A stretch of 13,240 bases of DNA, taken from IMG/VR virus record IMGVR_UViG_3300045988_131623, one strand, 5' to 3'. Below the pieces are notes generated by a model. It searched no databases. It was not told the DNA's origin and saw only the letters and a program-made list of their open reading frames with translations. The DNA comes from a virus. Made by a program: the position numbers and the translations under genes. Shown here one piece after another: positions 390-13,240 of this stretch (position 1 is the first letter of the stretch; each line of letters opens with the position of its first letter).

Positions 390-2486
390 TTATCCCTGAT
401 TTTCAATAATTTTCTGTTCATCCCACTTTAACCTTTCCTGTGTTATAAATCTGTCCCAATTTCCAACAGATGCCAAAAGATACATGTACTCCAACGAAAG
501 ACCTATTTCATACGTTGATTCTCGTAGCACAACATTTGAACGAATTTCAATTCGATGTTCTGATGAATCATCTGTATAGTAAGTTCCATAGTCACTGTCA
601 TTGTACACTGATTCCAACTTACCCGAATTACGGAATACGAAACCAACATTGAAGTTTTCGATTGTTCCCATTTCTCTCGCTCCTGCTTTCTTGGGTACTC
701 CTGCGATTGTAATTTTAAATGTCCCGTCTTGTCTAGTGTATGCATACTTTTTCGCTCCTAATGTTTTAAATTGTTTATATGTTTCTTCATATTCATATAC
801 ACCTAAGTAGTGTGTAATGCCTTTTTTGTCATCGGCATATCCTTTATTCGATATGCTGAGTTCTTTCAGACCCTGATTGTATTCCTCTATCCTTGCCACA
901 ATTCTTTTATAATCATCACGAACAAGGAACTTGACAGAATCAGTGTCACAATATACAAAATTATCTCCAACAATGTTTATCATTTCTTTCAATTTTAATC
1001 TAGCCCATGCAGTCACCCAACAGCCCCACGCATATAACAGGAATGCTTTCTTGTTGTATTTTTCCAACTTTTCACCGATATCAACTATATCTTCTAGTGT
1101 AAAAGCTTGGTCTGGTTCATCCATATAGATAACATCTGGTTTCACTGGATTCTGAGCGCACATACCATATAATGAGTTGATAAGTTCCTTACTTCTCATG
1201 TAGTTTAATTCCTGACCATCAACATTCTTGAGTGATGTTTTTTTATGAAACAAGTCAATGACTAAATCACGAAATGCTTGCGGTAAATATCCATATTTCG
1301 CAATATATACCTGACTAATTTCAACCTCTCCAACATACTCACTCTTAACTATTTTCCAGTCTATATCGTTGAATACATATACAGCCTTGTTAGCACTCAA
1401 TATTCTACCATTATCAACAACCTGACCTGATATCTTAACAGCCTTATCGAGACTCAAGTAAGGTGCGCCATAGTAAATATCTCTCTGTTGTAAGTTGGTT
1501 ATTGTAAATACAGCTATAAAACAACAGTCTCTTATCTGGCACTTCTTTTCTAGTTCACCAATATCTGTTATCATTCTAGGAGTAAAAGCACTCATAGGAA
1601 AACGATAGTTTAACATAACATCTGGATAACTGCTCGCCCTGTCATAACTAGCCACATTCTCAAGAATCTTATTGACATGATATCTGTTTGCGTGTGTGTC
1701 ACCACCGCGGAACTCAAGTCTCAACAGCTTATACACATCAACATCACACATCATAGCTTGTAGTTGGTTATGATTAAATTTTCGCATTGCTTCTTTGGCG
1801 AGTCTTCTAACATAACCCGTGGAAGTTAATGGTAAAGAATACAAAGTGTCATTTTCCATTCTCATTCGCACTTGCATAGATTCCAACAGACCAACAACGT
1901 CATTACAACAGTACTGCAATTCTTCTGTTGTCATTTCAGTCCACGGGTAACGCTTCTTTGAATAGTCAAATTCAACACCACTAAGCTTTTGGTGAACAAC
2001 ACCCATATCCCTAGTGAAAGCGTCCAGACTCTTGTTGGTCTGTATATAAGAACATCGAAACTGTACTCCGTCAATATCGGCTCTGACAACCTTTCTAGAC
2101 TTTAGGGCAAATATTTTGTCTTTTTGGAAAGGTAACCAGTGACGCATGAATTGGAATTCATAACTGAGGTTATGTACCCAAACCAAAACCGTAATCCCCT
2201 CATGGTAAAAACTGTCAAGTAACTTAGTGAATTGTTCCCATGTTCTACCAAAACAGTACCATATATTCCCGTTTCTTAAATCCATGACAGCAAATTGCCA
2301 TATATACATAATACTCTGTTCAACATCGTCAAGATAAGTTGTTTCAATATCGAAAGCACACATGCAGTTGCGGAATAATGTCTTATCTGATTTCTTTCTT
2401 TTACTGTAGTTTCTTGCAATTGGTATACTTTTGATAATGTCAGAAACGCACTCTCTTTGGACTTCTTTTACGGAATTCTGATTCAT
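390..2486 (-). CDS. Protein-primed family B DNA polymerase (phi29 gp2-like)
   Basis: Exo I FDIETT, Exo II HNLSYEFQF, Exo III YCCNDV, pre-motif A ASSYP, motif B KELINSLYG, motif C YCDTDS and KxY GAKKYAY are all present in phi29 order. The start is ambiguous: TTG 2537, ATG 2525, ATG 2486 (GGAGAG 13 nt upstream, chosen here) or ATG 2363 just before DIETT. All but 2363 overlap the upstream ORF in another frame. Confidence 0.9.
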   Translation of the reverse strand: MNQNSVKEVQRECVSDIIKSIPIARNYSKRKKSDKTLFRNCMCAFDIETTYLDDVEQSIMYIWQFAVMDLRNGNIWYCFGRTWEQFTKLLDSFYHEGITVLVWVHNLSYEFQFMRHWLPFQKDKIFALKSRKVVRADIDGVQFRCSYIQTNKSLDAFTRDMGVVHQKLSGVEFDYSKKRYPWTEMTTEELQYCCNDVVGLLESMQVRMRMENDTLYSLPLTSTGYVRRLAKEAMRKFNHNQLQAMMCDVDVYKLLRLEFRGGDTHANRYHVNKILENVASYDRASSYPDVMLNYRFPMSAFTPRMITDIGELEKKCQIRDCCFIAVFTITNLQQRDIYYGAPYLSLDKAVKISGQVVDNGRILSANKAVYVFNDIDWKIVKSEYVGEVEISQVYIAKYGYLPQAFRDLVIDLFHKKTSLKNVDGQELNYMRSKELINSLYGMCAQNPVKPDVIYMDEPDQAFTLEDIVDIGEKLEKYNKKAFLLYAWGCWVTAWARLKLKEMINIVGDNFVYCDTDSVKFLVRDDYKRIVARIEEYNQGLKELSISNKGYADDKKGITHYLGVYEYEETYKQFKTLGAKKYAYTRQDGTFKITIAGVPKKAGAREMGTIENFNVGFVFRNSGKLESVYNDSDYGTYYTDDSSEHRIEIRSNVVLRESTYEIGLSLEYMYLLASVGNWDRFITQERLKWDEQKIIENQG

Positions 2487-2946
2487 ATTCGCGATATCTC
2501 TCCAATATTTTTTGTGATGGTTCATTAGTGTGTTCAAGGTATATATCGGCGGCTTTATCGCTGTCGTATATGATATCTTCGGAATGTGTTCTTACAAGAT
2601 TCATAAAATCATAGAACTTTGATGCTTGTCTCCAATTCTTGAACTGATTAGTCCCAAACGTAATATTTAGTCTTTCAACTGCCGCCTTACGCTGTCGTTT
2701 TCTCTCAGCTATCACAAATGTCTTGTTCTTCAATGCCGCTTCTACTTCACGAATTGCCATTTCCAAGTTACGTTTAGACTTAATCTTTGAAACAACTGGA
2801 ATTCTAGGTTCAATATAAGCCCTCGCCGCTTCTACGTCTTTCGCGTAAGCACTTTTAGAAACTTTTGCTATTTGACCTGTAAGTTTCTTTCTCAACTCTC
2901 TGTATTTGACTTCTAGTTGTATTCTACTTGCAGATTTCTTTGCCAT
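2440..2946 (-). CDS. Short basic protein immediately upstream of the polymerase; putative terminal protein (TP)
   Basis: The ATG at 2946 is preceded by AAAGGAG. The protein is K/R-rich, about 168 aa. The segment NQFKNWRQASKF resembles the phi29 TP segment QFNKWKEQASSF as recalled. Its position directly 5' of the polymerase is canonical for a TP. It is shorter than known TPs, hence moderate confidence. Confidence 0.5.
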   Translation of the reverse strand: MAKKSASRIQLEVKYRELRKKLTGQIAKVSKSAYAKDVEAARAYIEPRIPVVSKIKSKRNLEMAIREVEAALKNKTFVIAERKRQRKAAVERLNITFGTNQFKNWRQASKFYDFMNLVRTHSEDIIYDSDKAADIYLEHTNEPSQKILERYREYESEFRKRSPKRVRF

Positions 2947-3097
2947 ATTTTCCACACTCCTTTCCTATTAAAGAGAGTATCACATTCTCTCTCAATACTA
3001 TCATTAATGCATTACTTCTTGAAGTACCCAGTTTAAAAGCAAGTTCATCAAGGTTTTTCAAGATATCCTCTTGAAAATTAACACTCACTGTTTTCAT
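2924..3097 (-). CDS. Ribbon-helix-helix (CopG/Arc/MetJ-type) transcriptional regulator, 57 aa
   Basis: This ORF is not in the supplied track. ATG 3097 is preceded by AAAGGAGAAAACT. The protein is MKTVSVNFQEDILKNLDELAFKLGTSRSNALMIVLRENVILSLIGKECGKYGKEICK, with a beta-strand followed by the G-T-S-R-S turn and helix typical of RHH. Its 3' end overlaps the TP-like start by about 20 nt in another frame. Confidence 0.6.
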   Translation of the reverse strand: MKTVSVNFQEDILKNLDELAFKLGTSRSNALMIVLRENVILSLIGKECGKYGKEICK

Positions 3098-3119
3098 AGT
3101 TTTCTCCTTTCATTCTTGA

Positions 3120-3139
3120 AATGTTTCACGTGAAACATT
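3120..3139. promoter_or_regulatory. 20-bp perfect palindrome AATGTTTCACGTGAAACATT, copy 1; candidate operator
   Basis: The palindrome is perfect. It lies 23 nt upstream of the RHH start codon and downstream of a TGG-TATAAT element on the minus strand. An identical copy is at 7871-7890. Confidence 0.5.
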
Positions 3140-3212
3140 AGTCATCGTGAAGTCCGTCTATGACGAACCCTACAATTATACCAACACATAACCCTAACAA
3201 GAATAGGCTCAT
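3138..3212 (-). CDS. 24-aa hydrophobic micro-ORF (MSLFLLGLCVGIIVGFVIDGLHDD)
   Basis: ATG 3212 overlaps the TGA of the upstream 86-aa gene (ATGA coupling). GAGGTGA lies 6 nt upstream. The product has a single TM-like segment. It is too short to be confident. Confidence 0.25.
   Translation of the reverse strand: MSLFLLGLCVGIIVGFVIDGLHDD
3175..3183 (-). promoter_or_regulatory. Extended -10 element (TGG-TATAAT) upstream of the RHH gene, minus strand
   Basis: The minus strand reads GTTGGTATAATTG. The candidate -35 (TTCTTG at 17-nt spacing) is weak. The palindromic operator sits at about +30 to +48. Confidence 0.3.
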
Positions 3213-3469: not shown

Positions 3470-3515
3470 TGTTAAAACTCCTTTCATATAAGTAGTTATC
3501 TATTGGAACACTTAT

Positions 3516-3544
3516 ACAATACCACATATATTGTTGAATGTCAA
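3516..3544 (-). promoter_or_regulatory. Leftward early promoter (sigma-A type)
   Basis: The minus strand reads TTGACA (3544-3539), a 17-nt spacer, then TGG-TATTGT (-10 at 3521-3516). This gives a transcription start near 3508 and a leader of about 40 nt before the 86-aa gene. Confidence 0.5.
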
Positions 3545-3673
3545 TAATCAAAATGAAAAAATTATTGAAAACATGAAAATATTATGTTACTATAATAATG
3601 TCCTTGAGAGAAATACTTTCACAGGGCAGAAGTCCAAAAACAATTATAATATAAGAAAGGAGATTCCGGTACA

Positions 3674-4052: not shown

Positions 4053-4063
4053 CGTGAAACATT
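4053..4063. promoter_or_regulatory. Half-site of the palindrome (CGTGAAACATT) abutting the RBS of the SSB-like gene
   Basis: It matches the right arm of the 20-bp palindrome exactly over 11 nt and lies immediately 5' of AAAGGAG at 4064-4070. Confidence 0.25.
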
Positions 4064-4074
4064 AAAGGAGAACA

Positions 4075-4437
4075 ATGAATATGAATATTATTAAAACAAA
4101 TATCAAAGACAATGAGTGGGACATGAATCTGAGTTATGACATGTTTGAGTCCCCGGACAGATTACGTGGTGCTGATTTGAAAGGAAAACAGGTTCACATT
4201 GACAAATTCTGTTTATATGAAGAAGAAAACGCAGATGGTGAACTGGTAAAAGTTCTTACCGTATCTACCAACGAAGGTCATGTTTTCGCAACAACTTCAG
4301 CGGCATTTGTTCGCACATTCGACAGAATTATGGAACTCGCAAAACGTTGCAACGTTGTAGATGTGTGTATCGAAATCGTTACAGAACGTAGCAAGAACAA
4401 CCGGGAGTACATCACCGCAAAATATGTCAAAGAATAA
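4075..4437 (+). CDS. Putative single-stranded DNA-binding protein (phi29 p5-like)
   Basis: The protein is 120 aa. The segment LTVSTNEGHVFATTSAAF closely resembles the phi29 p5 segment TTIFAADGSLYSAISKTV as recalled. Size and context fit. Confidence 0.5.
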   Translation: MNMNIIKTNIKDNEWDMNLSYDMFESPDRLRGADLKGKQVHIDKFCLYEEENADGELVKVLTVSTNEGHVFATTSAAFVRTFDRIMELAKRCNVVDVCIEIVTERSKNNREYITAKYVKE

Positions 4438-5488
4438 ATCCAAGAGCCTGTACACGATGCACGGTTATCTGGACGTTGAGGGGATAGTCAAAAAAGGCTA
4501 TCCCTTTAACTTTATATGGGGTGGACGTGGCACGGGTAAGACATATGGTGGTCTGAAATATGTCGTGGAGCACAACAAGACTTTCATGTATTCTAGAACA
4601 AAACAAACTCAACTCGACAAGATTAAGAACGTTGAGTTGTCCCCATTCAAACCGTTAAATGCAGATAATGATTGGAATATACAGCCATTCCCTGTAGATG
4701 ATATTGCAGGATTCTACCACACAGAACTTAATGAGAAAGACCGACTTGTGCCAGTTGGTTCACCTGTTGGTTATGCGTCAGCTATCACCACACTAGCGAA
4801 TTTACGTGGATTTTCCGCTGAGGATGTGTCTGTGTGGATATGGGACGAGTTCATTCCGCAGAAAGGTGACCGTGTTCCGAAAGGAATTGCAACGTCTTTT
4901 CTTCACGGCTATGAAACTATGAATCGAAATAGGGAGTTGAAAGGACTGCCGCCGCTACAGGTGTTGTGCTTTTCGAACTCAGATAATGTAGGCTGTGAGT
5001 TGTTCGCCAGTCTAGGACTTATCCGCAAAGTCGCGGATATGTCACGGAAAAGACAGGAAACAGCTTTCCTCAAGTCAAGGGGCATCGCTCTGTATAACTT
5101 ATGTAATAGTCCTATCTCACAGGCGAAAAAAGAAACAGCACTCTATAAGATGGTAGGCGAACACAGCGGCTTTTCTCAAATGGCTTTAGGAAACGAATTC
5201 TATAATACTGACTATTCGGATGTAAGATCGCAAAACCTATCGGAATATCTTCCGCTAGTATTTTTCGAAGAAATCGCAATCTATGAACACAAGTCCTCAG
5301 ATATGCTCTACGTGTGTAAACATAAACAGGGTACACCAATTCGAGCATTTACCGGAATTAACGAGAAGAACATCAAAGCTTTTAAAAGGTACTATTCATG
5401 GATATGGAATGTAAATTATCTCGAAGACAAAATCTTTTTCGAGGACATAGAATCTAAATTTCTACTTGACAGCTATTTTCATATGTAG
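4423..5488 (+). CDS. DNA encapsidation (packaging) ATPase, phi29 gp16-like FtsK/HerA-type
   Basis: Walker A is FIWGGRGTGKT (phi29 gp16: VIGARGIGKS). Walker B is VWIWDEF (phi29: IVFDEF). RNRE and CFSNS match the phi29 RNRE and CLSNA. The N-terminal KSLYT matches phi29 KSLFY and supports the ATG at 4423. Confidence 0.9.
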
Positions 5489-5497
5489 TACAATGTT

Positions 5498-5592
5498 CGT
5501 ATAGGGAAAACAAAAGTCCGTGGCACAAGGACATACAGCGGAACTGTAGTGCGAGGATTCGTCCAATCCATGATACGGACTTTCCCTATATT
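5498..5592 (+). ncRNA. Candidate structured RNA element in the 128-nt gap after the ATPase gene
   Basis: The 5' segment 5499-5522 pairs with the 3' segment 5574-5591: TATAGGGAAA/TTTCCCTATA (10 bp), a 6-nt bulge, then GTCCGT/ACGGAC. That is about 16 bp enclosing roughly 50 nt that contains further short helices (GGAC..GTCC, GGATT..AATCC). There is no ORF and no obvious promoter or terminator. Confidence 0.2.
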
Positions 5593-5625
5593 TCACAGTT
5601 CCAAAAAAGAAAGTGGGTGAATAAA

Positions 5626-6146: not shown

Positions 6147-6642
6147 TATTATCGCACTCGCGGGTGCGGGATTTACGAAAAATGACATTATTTCATTAAT
6201 TAACACAGCACCAGCACCAGCACCAGCACCAGCACCAGCACCAGCACCAGCACCAGCACCAGCACCAGCACCAGCACCAGCACCAGCGGTACAGCCAAAC
6301 ATGGGAATGCCGCCAGTTCCAGTGGGAGCGATGGCACAGCAGACAGTCACACCACCAGAATTATTACAGGCACAGCTCACAAGTCCGGCAATGGCAGGAC
6401 AGGCTCAGAGTCAGATGTTAGACTATGCTTTTCAGCAGGGAAATTATGCAGGGAGTCCAACACAGAATGTAGTAGGGCGGCAGTTTCCGAACAGTGATCA
6501 GTTGACAAATTCCATCAATGCGCTTACCAGAGCAGTACAGGCGAATGGAATCACACAGAATCTTGCAGGAGTTAATCATGTTCCGACTGTCGACGAAATG
6601 ACAGCGGCTATTATTAATCCACCTAGTGTGGTGAAAGGATGA
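6133..6642 (+). CDS. Protein with a (Pro-Ala)13 linker in the scaffold position upstream of the MCP gene
   Basis: AAGGAGA lies 10 nt upstream. The N-terminal helical motif is DDIIALAGAGFTKNDIISLI. A 26-residue (AP)n tract follows, then a Q/A/N-rich C-terminal half. The gene lies immediately 5' of the MCP gene, as the scaffold gene gp7 does in phi29. Confidence 0.65.
   Translation: MTMDDIIALAGAGFTKNDIISLINTAPAPAPAPAPAPAPAPAPAPAPAPAPAVQPNMGMPPVPVGAMAQQTVTPPELLQAQLTSPAMAGQAQSQMLDYAFQQGNYAGSPTQNVVGRQFPNSDQLTNSINALTRAVQANGITQNLAGVNHVPTVDEMTAAIINPPSVVKG
6208..6285. repeat. Perfect hexanucleotide tandem repeat (GCACCA)x13
   Basis: The repeat was counted directly: 78 nt with no interruptions. It encodes (Pro-Ala)13 in the plus frame. 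Confidence 0.95.
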
Positions 6643-6646
6643 TATA

Positions 6647-7840
6647 ATGGGAACAATAAATACCTTAGAATACTCGAAGCCGTCTATCTGTAGTTTTGAC
6701 TCTTCTAAAATTCTTACCAGTATTGTTAAACAGGCAACAGGAATTTCCGATATTGCAATTATTAATGGTGGTTTTGTGTCTATCGCTACTACTGCGTTAG
6801 GAATTGCACCAGATACATTACTTAGTGCTATGTCACAGGTTATTTCGCGTACTATTTTTTCTGTCAGACCGTATAATCGTAAGTTTGCAGGACTTTTTGT
6901 AGATAACATGAAGTGGGGAAACCATGTTCGTAAAATTAACATCGGAGATAAAGACTGGGAGATAAATGTTTCCTATGATCTGGCAGACGGAGAGAGTGTA
7001 GATGCTGATATTGTAAGCAAGCCGGACATTTTACAGACCAATTTTTATGGACAGTGTGTGTACAGTAAGCATTATACAATTTTTCGGGATCAGTTGAATA
7101 TCGCTTTGCAGAATGAAGAAGAATTTGAGAGATTCTACACAATGCTCGTTCAGAACACAATGGACATGATCGAACAGTGCCATGAAAATACAGCACGCGC
7201 GACTATCGCTAATCTTATTGGCGGAAAAGTTAAAGGTGATGTCAATAACGTTATTCACTTAGTCACAGAATATAACGATGTGACAGGACTCGCACTTGAC
7301 AGTGACACAGTGAAAAAACCAGAAAATTTTGTTCCATTCTACAAGTGGGCATTCTCTAGAATTAAAACAATTTCAGGACTTATGACGGAAAGAAGTTTGC
7401 AGTATCACATTAATATCACAGGGCATAACATCATGCGTCACACTCCTGTTCAGAACCAGAGATTATATTTATACACACCAGAAATGAACAACGTCGAAAG
7501 TTCTGTATTTTCAAGCGTTTTCAATGAACAGTACTTGAAAATGATGGACTATGAGGGTGTTAATTTTTGGCAGTCCATTAAAACACCAATGGGAATTAAC
7601 GTGAACGCACGTTATATTACTGCGACAGGTACTTTAACAACGGACGCTACAGGCACAGCAACTTCAAACATTCTCGGAGTCCTCATGGATGAAGAAGCGG
7701 CAGGGGTCACTACCTATGGTGCAAGAACTGCCGTTACTCCTTACAATGCAAGGGGTGAGTACACTAATGTTTGGTGGCACTTCAACGATCGGTATTGGAA
7801 TGACTTCACGGAAAATGCAGTTGTTTTCCTGTTAGATTGA
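6647..7840 (+). CDS. Major capsid protein (phi29 gp8-like, lacking the C-terminal Ig-like domain)
   Basis: The protein is 397 aa. It lies between the scaffold-position and tail-knob homologues. The C-terminal GEYTNVWWHF..FTENAVVF resembles phi29 gp8 GLYWNYYYHV..FANAVAFV as recalled. AAAGGATGA RBS upstream. Confidence 0.7.
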   Translation: MGTINTLEYSKPSICSFDSSKILTSIVKQATGISDIAIINGGFVSIATTALGIAPDTLLSAMSQVISRTIFSVRPYNRKFAGLFVDNMKWGNHVRKINIGDKDWEINVSYDLADGESVDADIVSKPDILQTNFYGQCVYSKHYTIFRDQLNIALQNEEEFERFYTMLVQNTMDMIEQCHENTARATIANLIGGKVKGDVNNVIHLVTEYNDVTGLALDSDTVKKPENFVPFYKWAFSRIKTISGLMTERSLQYHINITGHNIMRHTPVQNQRLYLYTPEMNNVESSVFSSVFNEQYLKMMDYEGVNFWQSIKTPMGINVNARYITATGTLTTDATGTATSNILGVLMDEEAAGVTTYGARTAVTPYNARGEYTNVWWHFNDRYWNDFTENAVVFLLD

Positions 7841-7848
7841 TATTTTTG

Positions 7849-7860
7849 GTTTCACGTGGG
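7849..7860. promoter_or_regulatory. Partial copy (TTTCACGTGGGA) of the palindrome core, 25 bp upstream of full copy 2
   Basis: It shares TTTCACGTG with the full site. Centre-to-centre spacing to the full site is about 25 bp. Confidence 0.3.
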
Positions 7861-7864
7861 ACGT

Positions 7865-7873
7865 TGTTATAAT
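7865..7873 (+). promoter_or_regulatory. Extended -10 promoter element TGT-TATAAT for the tail gene block
   Basis: TG is at 7865-7866 and TATAAT at 7868-7873, with no good -35. The element overlaps the first 3 bp of the palindrome. The implied transcription start is inside the palindrome and about 27 nt before the gp9-like ATG. Confidence 0.4.
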
Positions 7874-7890
7874 GTTTCACGTGAAACATT
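7871..7890. promoter_or_regulatory. 20-bp perfect palindrome AATGTTTCACGTGAAACATT, copy 2; candidate operator, with a possible weak hairpin-terminator role after the MCP gene
   Basis: It is identical to 3120-3139. It overlaps the -10 element and transcription start of the tail-gene promoter. On the plus strand it is followed by TTTTCT. Confidence 0.5.
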
Positions 7891-9978: not shown

Positions 9979-10899
9979 ATGATGAATGTTTTTAGCACAA
10001 ATGTTCCTGTTAGTTATGACATGATTAACTTGTATACTTCCAGTTATTCCCCGTCTACATTGCATTGCAAGAACACTCAGTTATATTCCTATTTTCTGAG
10101 ATACCTTTTGCAGAAATGTATGTCAGTATTCAAGTGGGATTTGCCGGAAGAGTGGGACAAGAATTATTTTCTGTACACCTTGTACTGTTGGGGATTCTTA
10201 TGTGTTTTTGAAACTGACAAATACGGTGTGATTCCGCAGGCTTGTGGTTTACAGGGATATAATATTTTTTATCAACCTACAGAGGTCAATATTGCAAACC
10301 CGTTGCTGAGAGGTATTAATATAAAAAGAATAAACAAAGACTGTGTAATTCTCAGATTGCAACCAGACTGGCGTGGTGTTATGGACATATGTTCTTACTA
10401 CGCTGATAATATGGCACTGACAGCAGAAACTTGTGAGATTAACATTGCAAACAGTAAATTAACTTATATGTTTGGTGTTGATGGAAAAGTACAGGCAGAG
10501 GCATTGAAGAAAACGTTTGACAAAATTATGTCTGGGAATACCGCAGTATATTATGGTAACAATCTCAGACGTAGGGATGCTATGGGAAATACTACAGACC
10601 CATGGACAACGTTTGCTAATAAGCTGAAAGAAAACTTCATTGCACCAGATTTACAGGATACACTCAGACGGTGGGAAGAAATGTTCTGCAATGATGTTGG
10701 TATTCCGAACGTGAGGTCAGACAAGAAAGAAAGGTTGATTACAGCTGAAGCTGAGAGTAACGATTTCGAAACACAGAGTAAATGTGACTTGTGGCTTGAA
10801 GAATTGCAGAAAAGCTGTAGAAAGATTAATGCTATGTTTGGTGACAAACTGAGTAGTGCCGTGTGGGTTGACTGGAGGAAAGGTAGGGAAGATGGTTAA
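9979..10899 (+). CDS. Head-tail connector / portal (phi29 gp10-like)
   Basis: The protein is 306 aa (phi29 gp10 is 309 aa). KKERLITAEAESNDFETQS and SCRKINAMFG resemble phi29 gp10 KKERMVTDEVSSNDEQIES and ACEKINELYG as recalled. The N-terminal FKWDLPEEW resembles phi29 FEWENLPPT. Confidence 0.85.
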   Translation: MMNVFSTNVPVSYDMINLYTSSYSPSTLHCKNTQLYSYFLRYLLQKCMSVFKWDLPEEWDKNYFLYTLYCWGFLCVFETDKYGVIPQACGLQGYNIFYQPTEVNIANPLLRGINIKRINKDCVILRLQPDWRGVMDICSYYADNMALTAETCEINIANSKLTYMFGVDGKVQAEALKKTFDKIMSGNTAVYYGNNLRRRDAMGNTTDPWTTFANKLKENFIAPDLQDTLRRWEEMFCNDVGIPNVRSDKKERLITAEAESNDFETQSKCDLWLEELQKSCRKINAMFGDKLSSAVWVDWRKGREDG

Positions 10900-11653: not shown

Positions 11654-12985
11654 ATGGCATTTTGGAATAAGTTCCCATTTACCAATTTTCACGAAATGAA
11701 TCTGGACTGGTTGATTTCAACCATGAAAGAATTGACGGACGGTTTTAATGTTCTTGACAATAGTGTTAAACAGCAGTTAAAAGACTTTAACACCACAATG
11801 ACTAACACGCTCACTTCTCAGAATACGAAGATTAACGACTTTGTTAATAATTATGAAGCGAAAGTTAATGATATTCCGAATCAGGTGTTGAAAGACGTTA
11901 GAACTGTTATGCATGACTATGAAACTGCTGGCGTTTTTCAAGAAATTATCAAAGATACATATGGAGCAGTCAGTTACCTAAATGACATGCAGAACAAAAA
12001 AATTGTACTTCTCGGAGACAGTTTAACAGATGAGAGCAGATCGGTAAGTTGGGTTAAAAGCTTTAAGACCATGCTGACGGGTACAGGCTGTACCGTATTA
12101 AGTTATGCTAAGTCCGGAGAAAAAATGGAAGAACAGGCTACAAGATTCGAAGCCTGTACCGTAAAACCAGATATTCTGTGGATATGGTGTGGTATTAATG
12201 ATGTGAGAGATCAGACAAGTTTATCTGCATTAAATACCGCTCTACATAAGATAAGAACAAAAGTACAGACACTTAATCCAAAATGTCAGGTGTATCTAAT
12301 GAGTACGTACAAAAATAAGAGAGGTATGCCGTCAGGGTGGGTTATTCCGCAAACGGCATATTGGCGTTATATGAGTCAGTACGCTATAATCAACGGATGG
12401 ACTTTTATTGATGGATTTTCAAGTGCGCCTGTTATTACACCAGAGACATCAATTATGCAGAGTACTTTTTATTCTGAAACCGACAAACAGTATTTACATT
12501 ACACAGCCGCTTACACCGATATTTTAGCAAGGTGGATTTTAAATTGCATGATTAATCAGTCGCCTGTTCCATTAGGAGACTATAAAGAACTTGTTCCATC
12601 GGCTAACTTTTCAGCAAAAATCAATGCGACCTCTAAGTTTGTACCTAACAGTGGTGGCACGTTCTGTGAATTCGGAACGCATATGGTTCATGTAAGATTA
12701 GTGGGTGCTTTCACGCCAGGCTCTAATAGTCCGCAGTACACTAAAATTTGTACGTTACCAGAATTTTGCAGACCAAAACAGACTTTAGGACATGAACTTG
12801 CTTTTCGTGGTGGTGGTATTGGTTCTGATGGTGGTCAGTATGTAGTTCCTGTTTATCTTGATACTGATGGTAGTGTTTATTTTTATAACAGGTCATTGAC
12901 ATTAGAAAGTTTCACTTCTGCCACATTGTCGTGTGATATTTATATTCACGACCTTAAAACTGATTGGGAGAGAACAGCTTCCTAA
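11654..12985 (+). CDS. Tail appendage / receptor-binding protein with a central SGNH (GDSL) hydrolase domain
   Basis: AGGGGG RBS upstream. SGNH block I is IVLLGDSLTD and block III is WCGINDV. An N-terminal roughly 110-aa probable virion-anchor region and a C-terminal roughly 140-aa domain flank the hydrolase core. It is the last gene before the right ITR, as gp12 is in phi29. Confidence 0.7.
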   Translation: MAFWNKFPFTNFHEMNLDWLISTMKELTDGFNVLDNSVKQQLKDFNTTMTNTLTSQNTKINDFVNNYEAKVNDIPNQVLKDVRTVMHDYETAGVFQEIIKDTYGAVSYLNDMQNKKIVLLGDSLTDESRSVSWVKSFKTMLTGTGCTVLSYAKSGEKMEEQATRFEACTVKPDILWIWCGINDVRDQTSLSALNTALHKIRTKVQTLNPKCQVYLMSTYKNKRGMPSGWVIPQTAYWRYMSQYAIINGWTFIDGFSSAPVITPETSIMQSTFYSETDKQYLHYTAAYTDILARWILNCMINQSPVPLGDYKELVPSANFSAKINATSKFVPNSGGTFCEFGTHMVHVRLVGAFTPGSNSPQYTKICTLPEFCRPKQTLGHELAFRGGGIGSDGGQYVVPVYLDTDGSVYFYNRSLTLESFTSATLSCDIYIHDLKTDWERTAS

Positions 12986-12990
12986 ACGTT

Positions 12991-13016
12991 AGGGTGACTT
13001 CGGTTGCCCTCTTTTT
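12991..13016 (+). terminator. Intrinsic terminator for the rightward (late) transcript, embedded in the inner edge of the right ITR
   Basis: The plus strand reads AGGGUGAC-UUCG-GUUGCCCU-C-UUUUU. It starts 6 nt after the appendage gene stop. It is the mirror image of the left-end terminator. Confidence 0.6.
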
Positions 13017-13240
13017 CGCGAGTGAGTTAGTTGGAACTAACTTTGTTCCCGTCAGAGTTAAATGCTACTAACTCATGGGCGGAGCGACCGGAGGGAGCGG
13101 AGCCATTTCGAACATATGTTTGGTTTAGTGTGCGTTCGCCGCGGACAGACTGGGCGGTTTGTGTTTGTCTGTCGCGGACAGAATGTTCGAGCTGTGTCCG
13201 TCACTCGCGGACAAATTGGGGAAAAGTGTCCGTCACACAC
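12991..13240. repeat. Right inverted terminal repeat (ITR)
   Basis: It is the reverse complement of 1-251 except for one A fewer in the homopolymer run. Confidence 0.95.

Follow-up and report, generated by a model that had tools for sequence, protein, structure and literature searches.

A ribbon-helix-helix gene in a phi29-like phage genome adjoins a palindrome that matches the consensus parS site of host ParB

The window analysed here, the whole 13,240-base-pair (bp) stretch of IMG/VR virus record IMGVR_UViG_3300045988_131623, is the complete linear genome of a phi29-like gut phage, with terminal inverted repeats. It carries a gene for a very small ribbon-helix-helix (RHH) protein with a perfect 20-bp palindrome in its leader, and the locus raises the question of which protein reads that palindrome. 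A small repressor gene with a leader palindrome looks autoregulatory, and the original prediction, made from the letters of the window, took the palindrome for the operator of the RHH protein. Our analysis corrects this picture to one of a regulator gene beside a mimic of the host centromere. The elements concerned are the following:

2924..3097, minus strand: gene for a 57-amino-acid (aa) ribbon-helix-helix (CopG/Arc-like) protein, ATG start; translation MKTVSVNFQEDILKNLDELAFKLGTSRSNALMIVLRENVILSLIGKECGKYGKEICK
3101..3110, minus strand: Shine-Dalgarno region of the RHH gene, AAAGGAGAAA, read directly and kept in relatives with a leader
3120..3139, no strand: perfect 20-bp palindrome AATGTTTCACGTGAAACATT, 'site A'; its core, 3122-3137, is the 16-bp consensus parS TGTTTCACGTGAAACA
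7871..7890, no strand: identical copy of AATGTTTCACGTGAAACATT, 'site D', between the major capsid gene and a gene for a 475-aa protein; core 7873-7888
7846..7865, no strand: degenerate copy of the palindrome, TTGGTTTCACGTGGGACGTT, 25 bp upstream of site D
4053..4063, no strand: parS half-site CGTGAAACATT, directly preceding the SSB-like gene; what is left of 'site B'

Both perfect copies of the palindrome are present as had been predicted, with 22 nucleotides (nt) by our measurement between site A and the RHH start codon. Two matches to the 20-mer were obtained in 0 of 200 dinucleotide-preserving shuffles. The published consensus of chromosomal parS, the binding site of ParB/Spo0J, is TGTTTCAC-GTGAAACA, and the cores of sites A and D are exact copies of this 16-bp consensus. 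Among the matches listed, the literature containing the 16-mer is almost entirely about ParB, parS or chromosome organisation. Sites of other host factors, among them CcpA (cre), Rex, LexA, TnrA and PadR, are not known to fit the palindrome. Judged from its sequence and by analogy with phi29, the palindrome is most likely a docking site for host ParB, not the RHH protein's own operator. We hold with good confidence the joint reading that a real RHH gene, internal to an early operon, stands next to a consensus parS for host ParB.

How closely does the palindrome follow the RHH gene? We mapped four intergenic slots, A to D, in the 22 genomes that encode this RHH. Site A, in the RHH leader, is occupied in nine and absent from 13. 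Site B, before the SSB-like gene, is a full parS in 19, often doubled; site C, before orf68, is found in seven, and site D, before the 475-aa gene, in 19. At least one copy of the palindrome occurs somewhere in all 22. Gain and loss of sites take the form of clean indels (the window differs from L001 by a deletion between repeats), and at site D the core has an identity of 1.00 against 0.70 for its flanks, in two unrelated upstream contexts. The sites are strongly conserved yet shuffled between intergenic slots.

Had the palindrome been the RHH operator, a tetramer on 3120-3139 would autoregulate RHH, terminal protein and polymerase, and a tetramer on 7871-7890 would hold back the late genes as a repressor or roadblock; together they would make up an early/late switch. 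Short palindromes are typical targets of RHH repressors, but this one is the exact consensus of a different and universal protein, ParB. The site stands in the RHH leader of the window and eight relatives, but more than half of the RHH genomes lack it there, and the RHH of L011, L014 and L028 has no leader; the palindrome does not overlap the promoter that drives RHH, and the nearer promoter element TGGTATAAT, described below, is not conserved. At the other copy, a TATAAT at 7868-7873 overlaps the left end of site D, a position typical of repressors, but in genomes of the L001 type a GC-rich terminator precedes site D and leaves no room for a promoter, and L037 and L038 express the 475-aa gene without a site D. 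Covariation of RHH and palindrome was initially promising: every RHH genome has at least one copy, L037 and L038 keep both the RHH strand and the palindrome, and L039-L041 (polymerase 45% identical), which have a different small protein in place of this RHH, have no perfect copy either. It collapsed on the finding of the palindrome in many phages without RHH: at least 13 polymerase-B phages in which no RHH is detectable have several copies, as do unrelated phages with a guanine+cytosine (GC) content of 50-72%. We therefore regard the operator reading as unlikely.

These other phages came from a scan of IMG/VR for the 16-mer, in which at least 29 contigs had two or more copies of its 14-bp core. 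At least 13 of the multi-copy contigs belong to the same protein-primed polymerase B cluster as the window, and in eight of these the polymerase is 23-47% identical to that of the window (tblastn). Searches with two hidden Markov models (HMMs), one built on this RHH family and one on a general RHH seed, found no credible RHH in these phi29-like phages or in the other multi-copy contigs listed, and the region upstream of the terminal-protein gene of L147 contains none. In the distant phi29-like phages the location of parS varies: some copies are in leaders or follow terminators, others fall in terminal repeats or even within the coding sequence of the polymerase. Among the matches listed, the core occurs in contigs spanning 30-72% GC, and a sequence common to phages of hosts so different must have a universal reader. 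A binding site for a shared phage protein was rejected: when the open reading frames (ORFs) of the listed multi-site contigs, the window and L037 were clustered all against all, the phi29-like set shared only polymerase and structural genes and had nothing in common with the second phage group.

Individual placements in these and related contigs were as follows. The coding sequence for DNA polymerase contains perfect parS copies in L147 (3051), L047 (9224 and 9575) and L061 (2628 and 2979), and L141 has one in each terminal repeat, at 133 and 11580. The second group consists of unrelated tailed phages with a terminase and an SU10-type portal (GC 50-54%), and has three to five perfect parS cores within about 1 kb, mostly in non-coding DNA beside the terminase genes (L102 10536-11461, with five copies in about 1 kb; L062 2658-3443; L114 241-960). 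The sister genomes L037 (6963-7000) and L038 (6860-6900) differ by the precise presence or absence of the 14-bp GTTTCACGTGAAAC before orf68, flanked by a short AAAC repeat. The small protein of L039 found no support as an RHH (hhalign probability 0.2%). Near its contig end (39-119), L040, whose polymerase is 45% identical to that of the window, carries three 19-bp palindromes, TTTGTGCAAyCTGCACAAA, at 31-bp spacing, which look like an operator array for a different regulator.

Could the palindrome act instead as RNA? As a hairpin 5' of the ribosome-binding site it might terminate, stabilise or process transcripts, and every copy in this clade does fall within a transcribed leader. On its own, the 24-nt RNA of site A forms a hairpin of 8 bp (-6.4 kcal/mol, z=-4.1), but once the surrounding 3100-3160 is included a different structure has the lowest energy, and the fold does not outperform those of shuffled sequences (z=-0.85); the hairpin is weak and no U run follows, which sets it apart from the terminator pattern. 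The second location looks different. There the degenerate copy and site D together form an 18-bp hairpin at 7849-7887 (-23.1 kcal/mol, z=-4.5) followed by the U run AUUUUUCU; it comes directly after the stop codon of the capsid gene, was flagged by a terminator scan, and may be an intrinsic terminator built from parS copies. L001-type genomes, however, have a separate GC-rich terminator at the corresponding place, immediately upstream of site D. Sequence changes also speak against the RNA: the palindrome is invariant rather than covarying, and changes in one arm, such as AACGTTTCACGTGAAACATT, are uncompensated in the other, which argues against a simple hairpin. Half-sites are kept, and other phages carry the sequence in coding regions and terminal repeats. 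We find a primary role as an RNA hairpin highly improbable.

The preferred reading, a docking site for host ParB, has a precedent. Phi29 is reported in PMC2731898, which cites Meijer et al. (2005), to have five parS sites, through which host Spo0J promotes entrapment in spores and capture of the genome in the forespore. A scan of the phi29 record EU771092 gave four copies of TGTTTCACGTGGAACA, at 10445, 15903, 17243 and 18760. The window's TGTTTCACGTGAAACA differs from this sequence at one position. We take TGTTTCACGTGGAACA to be the Bacillus subtilis form of parS. The window resembles phi29 in being a small linear protein-primed genome that carries several host-type parS sites but lacks par genes; neither ParA nor ParB was found among the window proteins. 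The two differ in that the window has two perfect copies (up to four in relatives) as against the five reported for phi29, and in that its parS sites are perfect consensus and confined to intergenic leaders, whereas three of the four copies found in phi29 lie inside genes. Moreover, Spo0A boxes are not evident in the window.

ParB spreads on DNA as a cytidine triphosphate (CTP)-dependent sliding clamp. On the preferred reading, host ParB/Spo0J would nucleate at both perfect sites, perhaps with a weak contribution from the degenerate copy, and would then, as we assume, coat the 13-kb genome as such a clamp. The phage DNA would thereby be tied to the chromosome-segregation or sporulation machinery of the host, as reported for phi29. 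By the same analogy, the phage DNA might end up trapped in spores, or might be passed on stably during a carrier state or stalled infection. The position of the sites in leaders is most simply explained by the tight packing of the genome, which has little non-coding space for a 16-20-bp palindrome.

If ParB is the reader of the palindrome, what is the RHH gene? The ORF and its GTSRS signature were found as predicted, and profile, fold and conservation all agree with a CopG/Arc-type assignment. The ribosome-binding site is present as had been claimed, with GGAG in AAAGGAGAAA placed 6 nt before the ATG. The gene had been called unannotated, which holds for the ORF track used at the time but not for public data, where 32 contigs have a gene call for the identical protein, which bears the Joint Genome Institute (JGI) name 'metal-responsive CopG/Arc/MetJ family transcriptional regulator'. 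We collected 54 homologues with identities of 72-100%, almost all 57 aa long; a tblastn search of known phage records with the RHH gave no match. The ratio of nonsynonymous to synonymous polymorphism (pN/pS), pooled over pairs of 16 distinct nucleotide sequences, is about 0.19, indicating purifying selection. In the N-terminal strand T3, V4, S5, N7 and F8 are invariant, as is the S-R-S-N turn at 26-29, while K2, G24 and T25 are nearly so (33 sequences); the GTSRS motif at 24-28 corresponds to the G-x-S/T-x-S turn that caps the N terminus of helix 2. The diverged RHH of L037 and L038 retains a K-T-[VI]-S-[VI] strand, and the L037 homologue was aligned with an hhalign probability of 95%.

The predicted structure points the same way. 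The AlphaFold2 model (predicted local distance difference test score, pLDDT, 90) has an extended segment at 1-9 and helices at 10-23 and 27-43; the N-terminal strand is unformed in the monomer, and the topology is otherwise strand-helix-helix. Its top Foldseek match is the CopG-DNA complex, in line with the predicted RHH fold and with similarity to solved RHH proteins. In a PDB search with the family profile CopG was again best (E=0.0076), followed by NikR (0.11); the sequence and structure searches together also retrieved Arc and Mnt. PHROG 4738, 'transcriptional repressor', matches with E=4e-4, a sub-threshold support. By sequence and model, then, the ORF is a real, conserved gene for an RHH DNA-binding protein that most resembles the plasmid repressor CopG.

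How is this gene expressed, and where might its product bind? The neighbouring features are these:

390-2537: protein-primed DNA polymerase B gene, after the terminal-protein-like ORF
2440..2955, minus strand: terminal-protein-like ORF, 168-171 aa, overlapped by the 3' end of the RHH gene and followed by the DNA polymerase B gene
3138..3212, minus strand: ORF for a 24-aa hydrophobic membrane-type peptide, MSLFLLGLCVGIIVGFVIDGLHDD, between a 92-aa ORF and the palindrome
3175..3183, minus strand: extended -10-like element TGGTATAAT, inside the 24-aa ORF
3516..3544, minus strand: leftward early promoter-like site, TTGACA-17-TATTGT with TG upstream, conserved in relatives
3531..3547, no strand: inverted repeat of 7-3-7 layout, TTGTTGAatgTCAATAA, covering the leftward promoter's -35 box

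The 24-aa ORF is translationally coupled to the 92-aa ORF, whose stop codon its ATG overlaps (ATGA), and its own stop codon, TAA at 3140-3138, overlaps the palindrome. A homologue of 24-27 aa lies before RHH, or one gene upstream, in every relative examined. In L011, L014 and L028, whose RHH is 75-84% identical, the RHH ATG overlaps the stop codon of this peptide and there is no leader; in L006, L013 and L016 an extra ORF is inserted between the two. At the other end of the gene, the last 8-11 or so RHH codons overlap the start of the terminal-protein-like ORF.

The TGG-TATAAT element that had been noticed upstream of the palindrome is indeed present, 35 nt before the start of site A. As a promoter of RHH itself we rejected it: relatives with an RHH 96-98% identical have TTTAAT, TCTAAT or TCTGAT in place of its TATAAT, and in others RHH is coupled to the upstream ORF. 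The element is probably fortuitous. The conserved promoter-like site at 3544-3516 lies about 400 nt upstream of the palindrome, no terminator-like site was found on the minus strand between it and RHH, and it is likely the promoter of an operon comprising the 92-aa ORF, the 24-aa peptide, RHH, the terminal-protein-like gene and DNA polymerase. The lack of conservation of TGGTATAAT, the leaderless relatives and this conserved promoter with no terminator after it place RHH inside the leftward early operon.

The inverted repeat over the -35 box of this promoter becomes a perfect TTGTTGAcatTCAACAA in relatives. CopG covers the -35 box of its own promoter. By analogy with that geometry, we infer that 3531-3547 is the best candidate for the operator of RHH; no further copies of TTGTTGA-N3-TCAACAA above chance expectation were found. 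As a dimer or tetramer, RHH would most likely repress phage promoters, probably early ones, although our confidence in the particular target is low.

Several observations sit less easily with the joint reading of an RHH repressor beside a parS for host ParB. On the side of the protein, the match to Pfam RHH_1 (PF01402; E=0.0084, 16.5 bits) falls under the curated cut-off of 20.5, and the repeat at 3531-3547 occurs only once, does not stand out statistically and coincides with the -35 box, which confounds it. The 20-bp palindrome is of a size that a tetramer of RHH could occupy, though nothing specific speaks for binding of RHH to parS. On the side of ParB, the other half of the phi29 strategy, Spo0A boxes, is represented by a single TGTCGAA in the window where about two are expected by chance. 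Bacterial genomes were scanned with the polymerase and the tail lysozyme, and no relatives turned up that would point to a host. Finally, within this clade each parS site precedes a ribosome-binding site by 11-25 nt, a position that would suit a transcriptional or translational control element too.

That last position, shared by the sites before the RHH, SSB-like, orf68 and 475-aa genes, would fit a variant of the ParB reading in which host ParB binds parS chiefly as a transcriptional gate, its CTP clamps silencing phage genes according to the state of the host, with segregation secondary. ParB is reported to repress promoters adjoining high-affinity parS in Pseudomonas aeruginosa (PMC5521831), and some silencing of this kind is possible as a secondary role of the sites. 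As their main purpose it is quite improbable: other phages have the sites in coding regions and terminal repeats, and three of the four found in phi29 are inside genes; occupancy of the leaders varies among near-identical genomes; and any inserted palindrome would be expected between genes in a genome so densely coded. Tethering to the host segregation or sporulation machinery remains the function that we favour for the sites.

The RHH protein invites comparison with known regulators. Like CopG (RepA) of plasmid pMV158 and Arc and Mnt of phage P22, it has an RHH within about 45-57 aa, comprising an N-terminal strand, a helix, a G-x-S/T-R-S turn and a second helix, and it heads replication genes as copG precedes repB. 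It differs from all three by an additional C-terminal segment (44-57, with a short helix at 50-55) that overlaps the next gene. Identity with CopG is about 27% over 37 residues, and, unlike CopG, RHH is not first in its operon and its operator is only a candidate. SvtR of the Sulfolobus rod-shaped virus SIRV1 is a 56-aa viral RHH protein that represses its own gene and a structural gene. Both it and the RHH of the window are very small viral RHH proteins, and its function is of the kind originally proposed for the latter, but SvtR belongs to an archaeal virus and no homology was detected.

In phi29 itself, the corresponding position is that of p4 (gene 4): both genes lie upstream of the terminal-protein gene and overlap it, with DNA polymerase following in a leftward early operon, and the gene order is that of phi29 genes 4, 3 and 2. 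The p4 protein has 125 aa and a different fold, and contacts DNA by means of an N-terminal hook. In the window we identified no binding sites of the p4 type, and among Pfam and PHROGs families RHH matches only those of the RHH type, which sets it apart from p4 without a direct comparison of the two. The original proposal was a functional analogue of p4 with an unrelated structure; given its gene position, its RHH-only matches and its predicted fold, RHH is reasonably described as a structurally unrelated analogue in position, with a putative role in an early/late switch. It is the only recognisable DNA-binding regulator of the 13-kb genome and a candidate substitute for p4. Within the CopG/Arc class it is a new and divergent member, encoded where phi29 has p4.

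In the literature searched, phi29 and its relatives are the only phages documented to use host-type parS, and a 2024 review of the diversity of phi29-like phages mentions neither parS nor RHH proteins; such frequent occurrence of perfect parS in uncultured phi29-like phages of the gut is apparently undescribed. The present data widen the phi29 precedent to exact consensus parS in multiple copies across many such phages. This suggests the hypothesis that 'strictly lytic' gut podoviruses may persist by hitch-hiking on chromosome segregation or sporulation of the host, and parS density could serve as a simple sequence marker for finding them. A broader proposal is tentative, and we rate it as rather doubtful in its entirety: perfect parS would be widespread and repeatedly gained and lost in small virulent gut phages (phi29-like ones and at least one unrelated tailed group), where it would load ParB-CTP clamps and, through them, engage SMC or ParA. 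In gut Firmicutes this would provide spore entrapment or carrier-state inheritance without lysogeny genes, and placement at gene starts could let ParB gate transcription, with RHH modulating it.

In the genome as a whole, genes run leftward to the left of about position 3500 and rightward elsewhere, with a divergent promoter region at 3488-3673. The 'terminal protein' label of the ORF at 2440..2955 is owed to its position alone, as it has no family match. The window also encodes a tail lysozyme, and three further products are of recognisable phi29 type:

4361-5488: gp16-type packaging ATPase
6647-7840: phi29-type major capsid protein
9979-10899: gp10-type connector

Gut metagenomes are rich in close relatives. 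In the phage-record collection the sole match was an unannotated 6.9-kb human fecal contig, covering only the right half of the genome.

The terminal inverted repeats are perfect over 229 bp and can be extended to about 255 bp, far longer than the 6 bp of phi29; the extension to 1-255 and 12986-13240 comes from an overlapping 26-bp segment that is perfectly complementary. Internal 23-nt inverted repeats lie within the terminal repeat at 166-218. Elsewhere, a near-consensus promoter, TTGACA-17-TACAAT, is found at 5466-5494 on the plus strand, at the end of the packaging ATPase gene. Right after it, 5495-5600 contains a structured RNA of about 100 nt whose fold is a three-way junction, with compensatory changes in 13 of 28 predicted pairs in an alignment of five relatives. 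Rfam gave no match to it or to any other part of the window. It is a candidate analogue of the packaging RNA (pRNA). At 6194-6305, about 15 tandem copies of the hexamer GCACCA encode an (Ala-Pro)n stretch in a 169-aa ORF upstream of the capsid gene, which may specify a scaffold-like protein. The last gene (11654-12985, plus strand; 443 aa) has a GDSL/SGNH esterase domain (Pfam E=9e-10), and its product is probably a tail appendage that deacetylates a surface polymer of the host.

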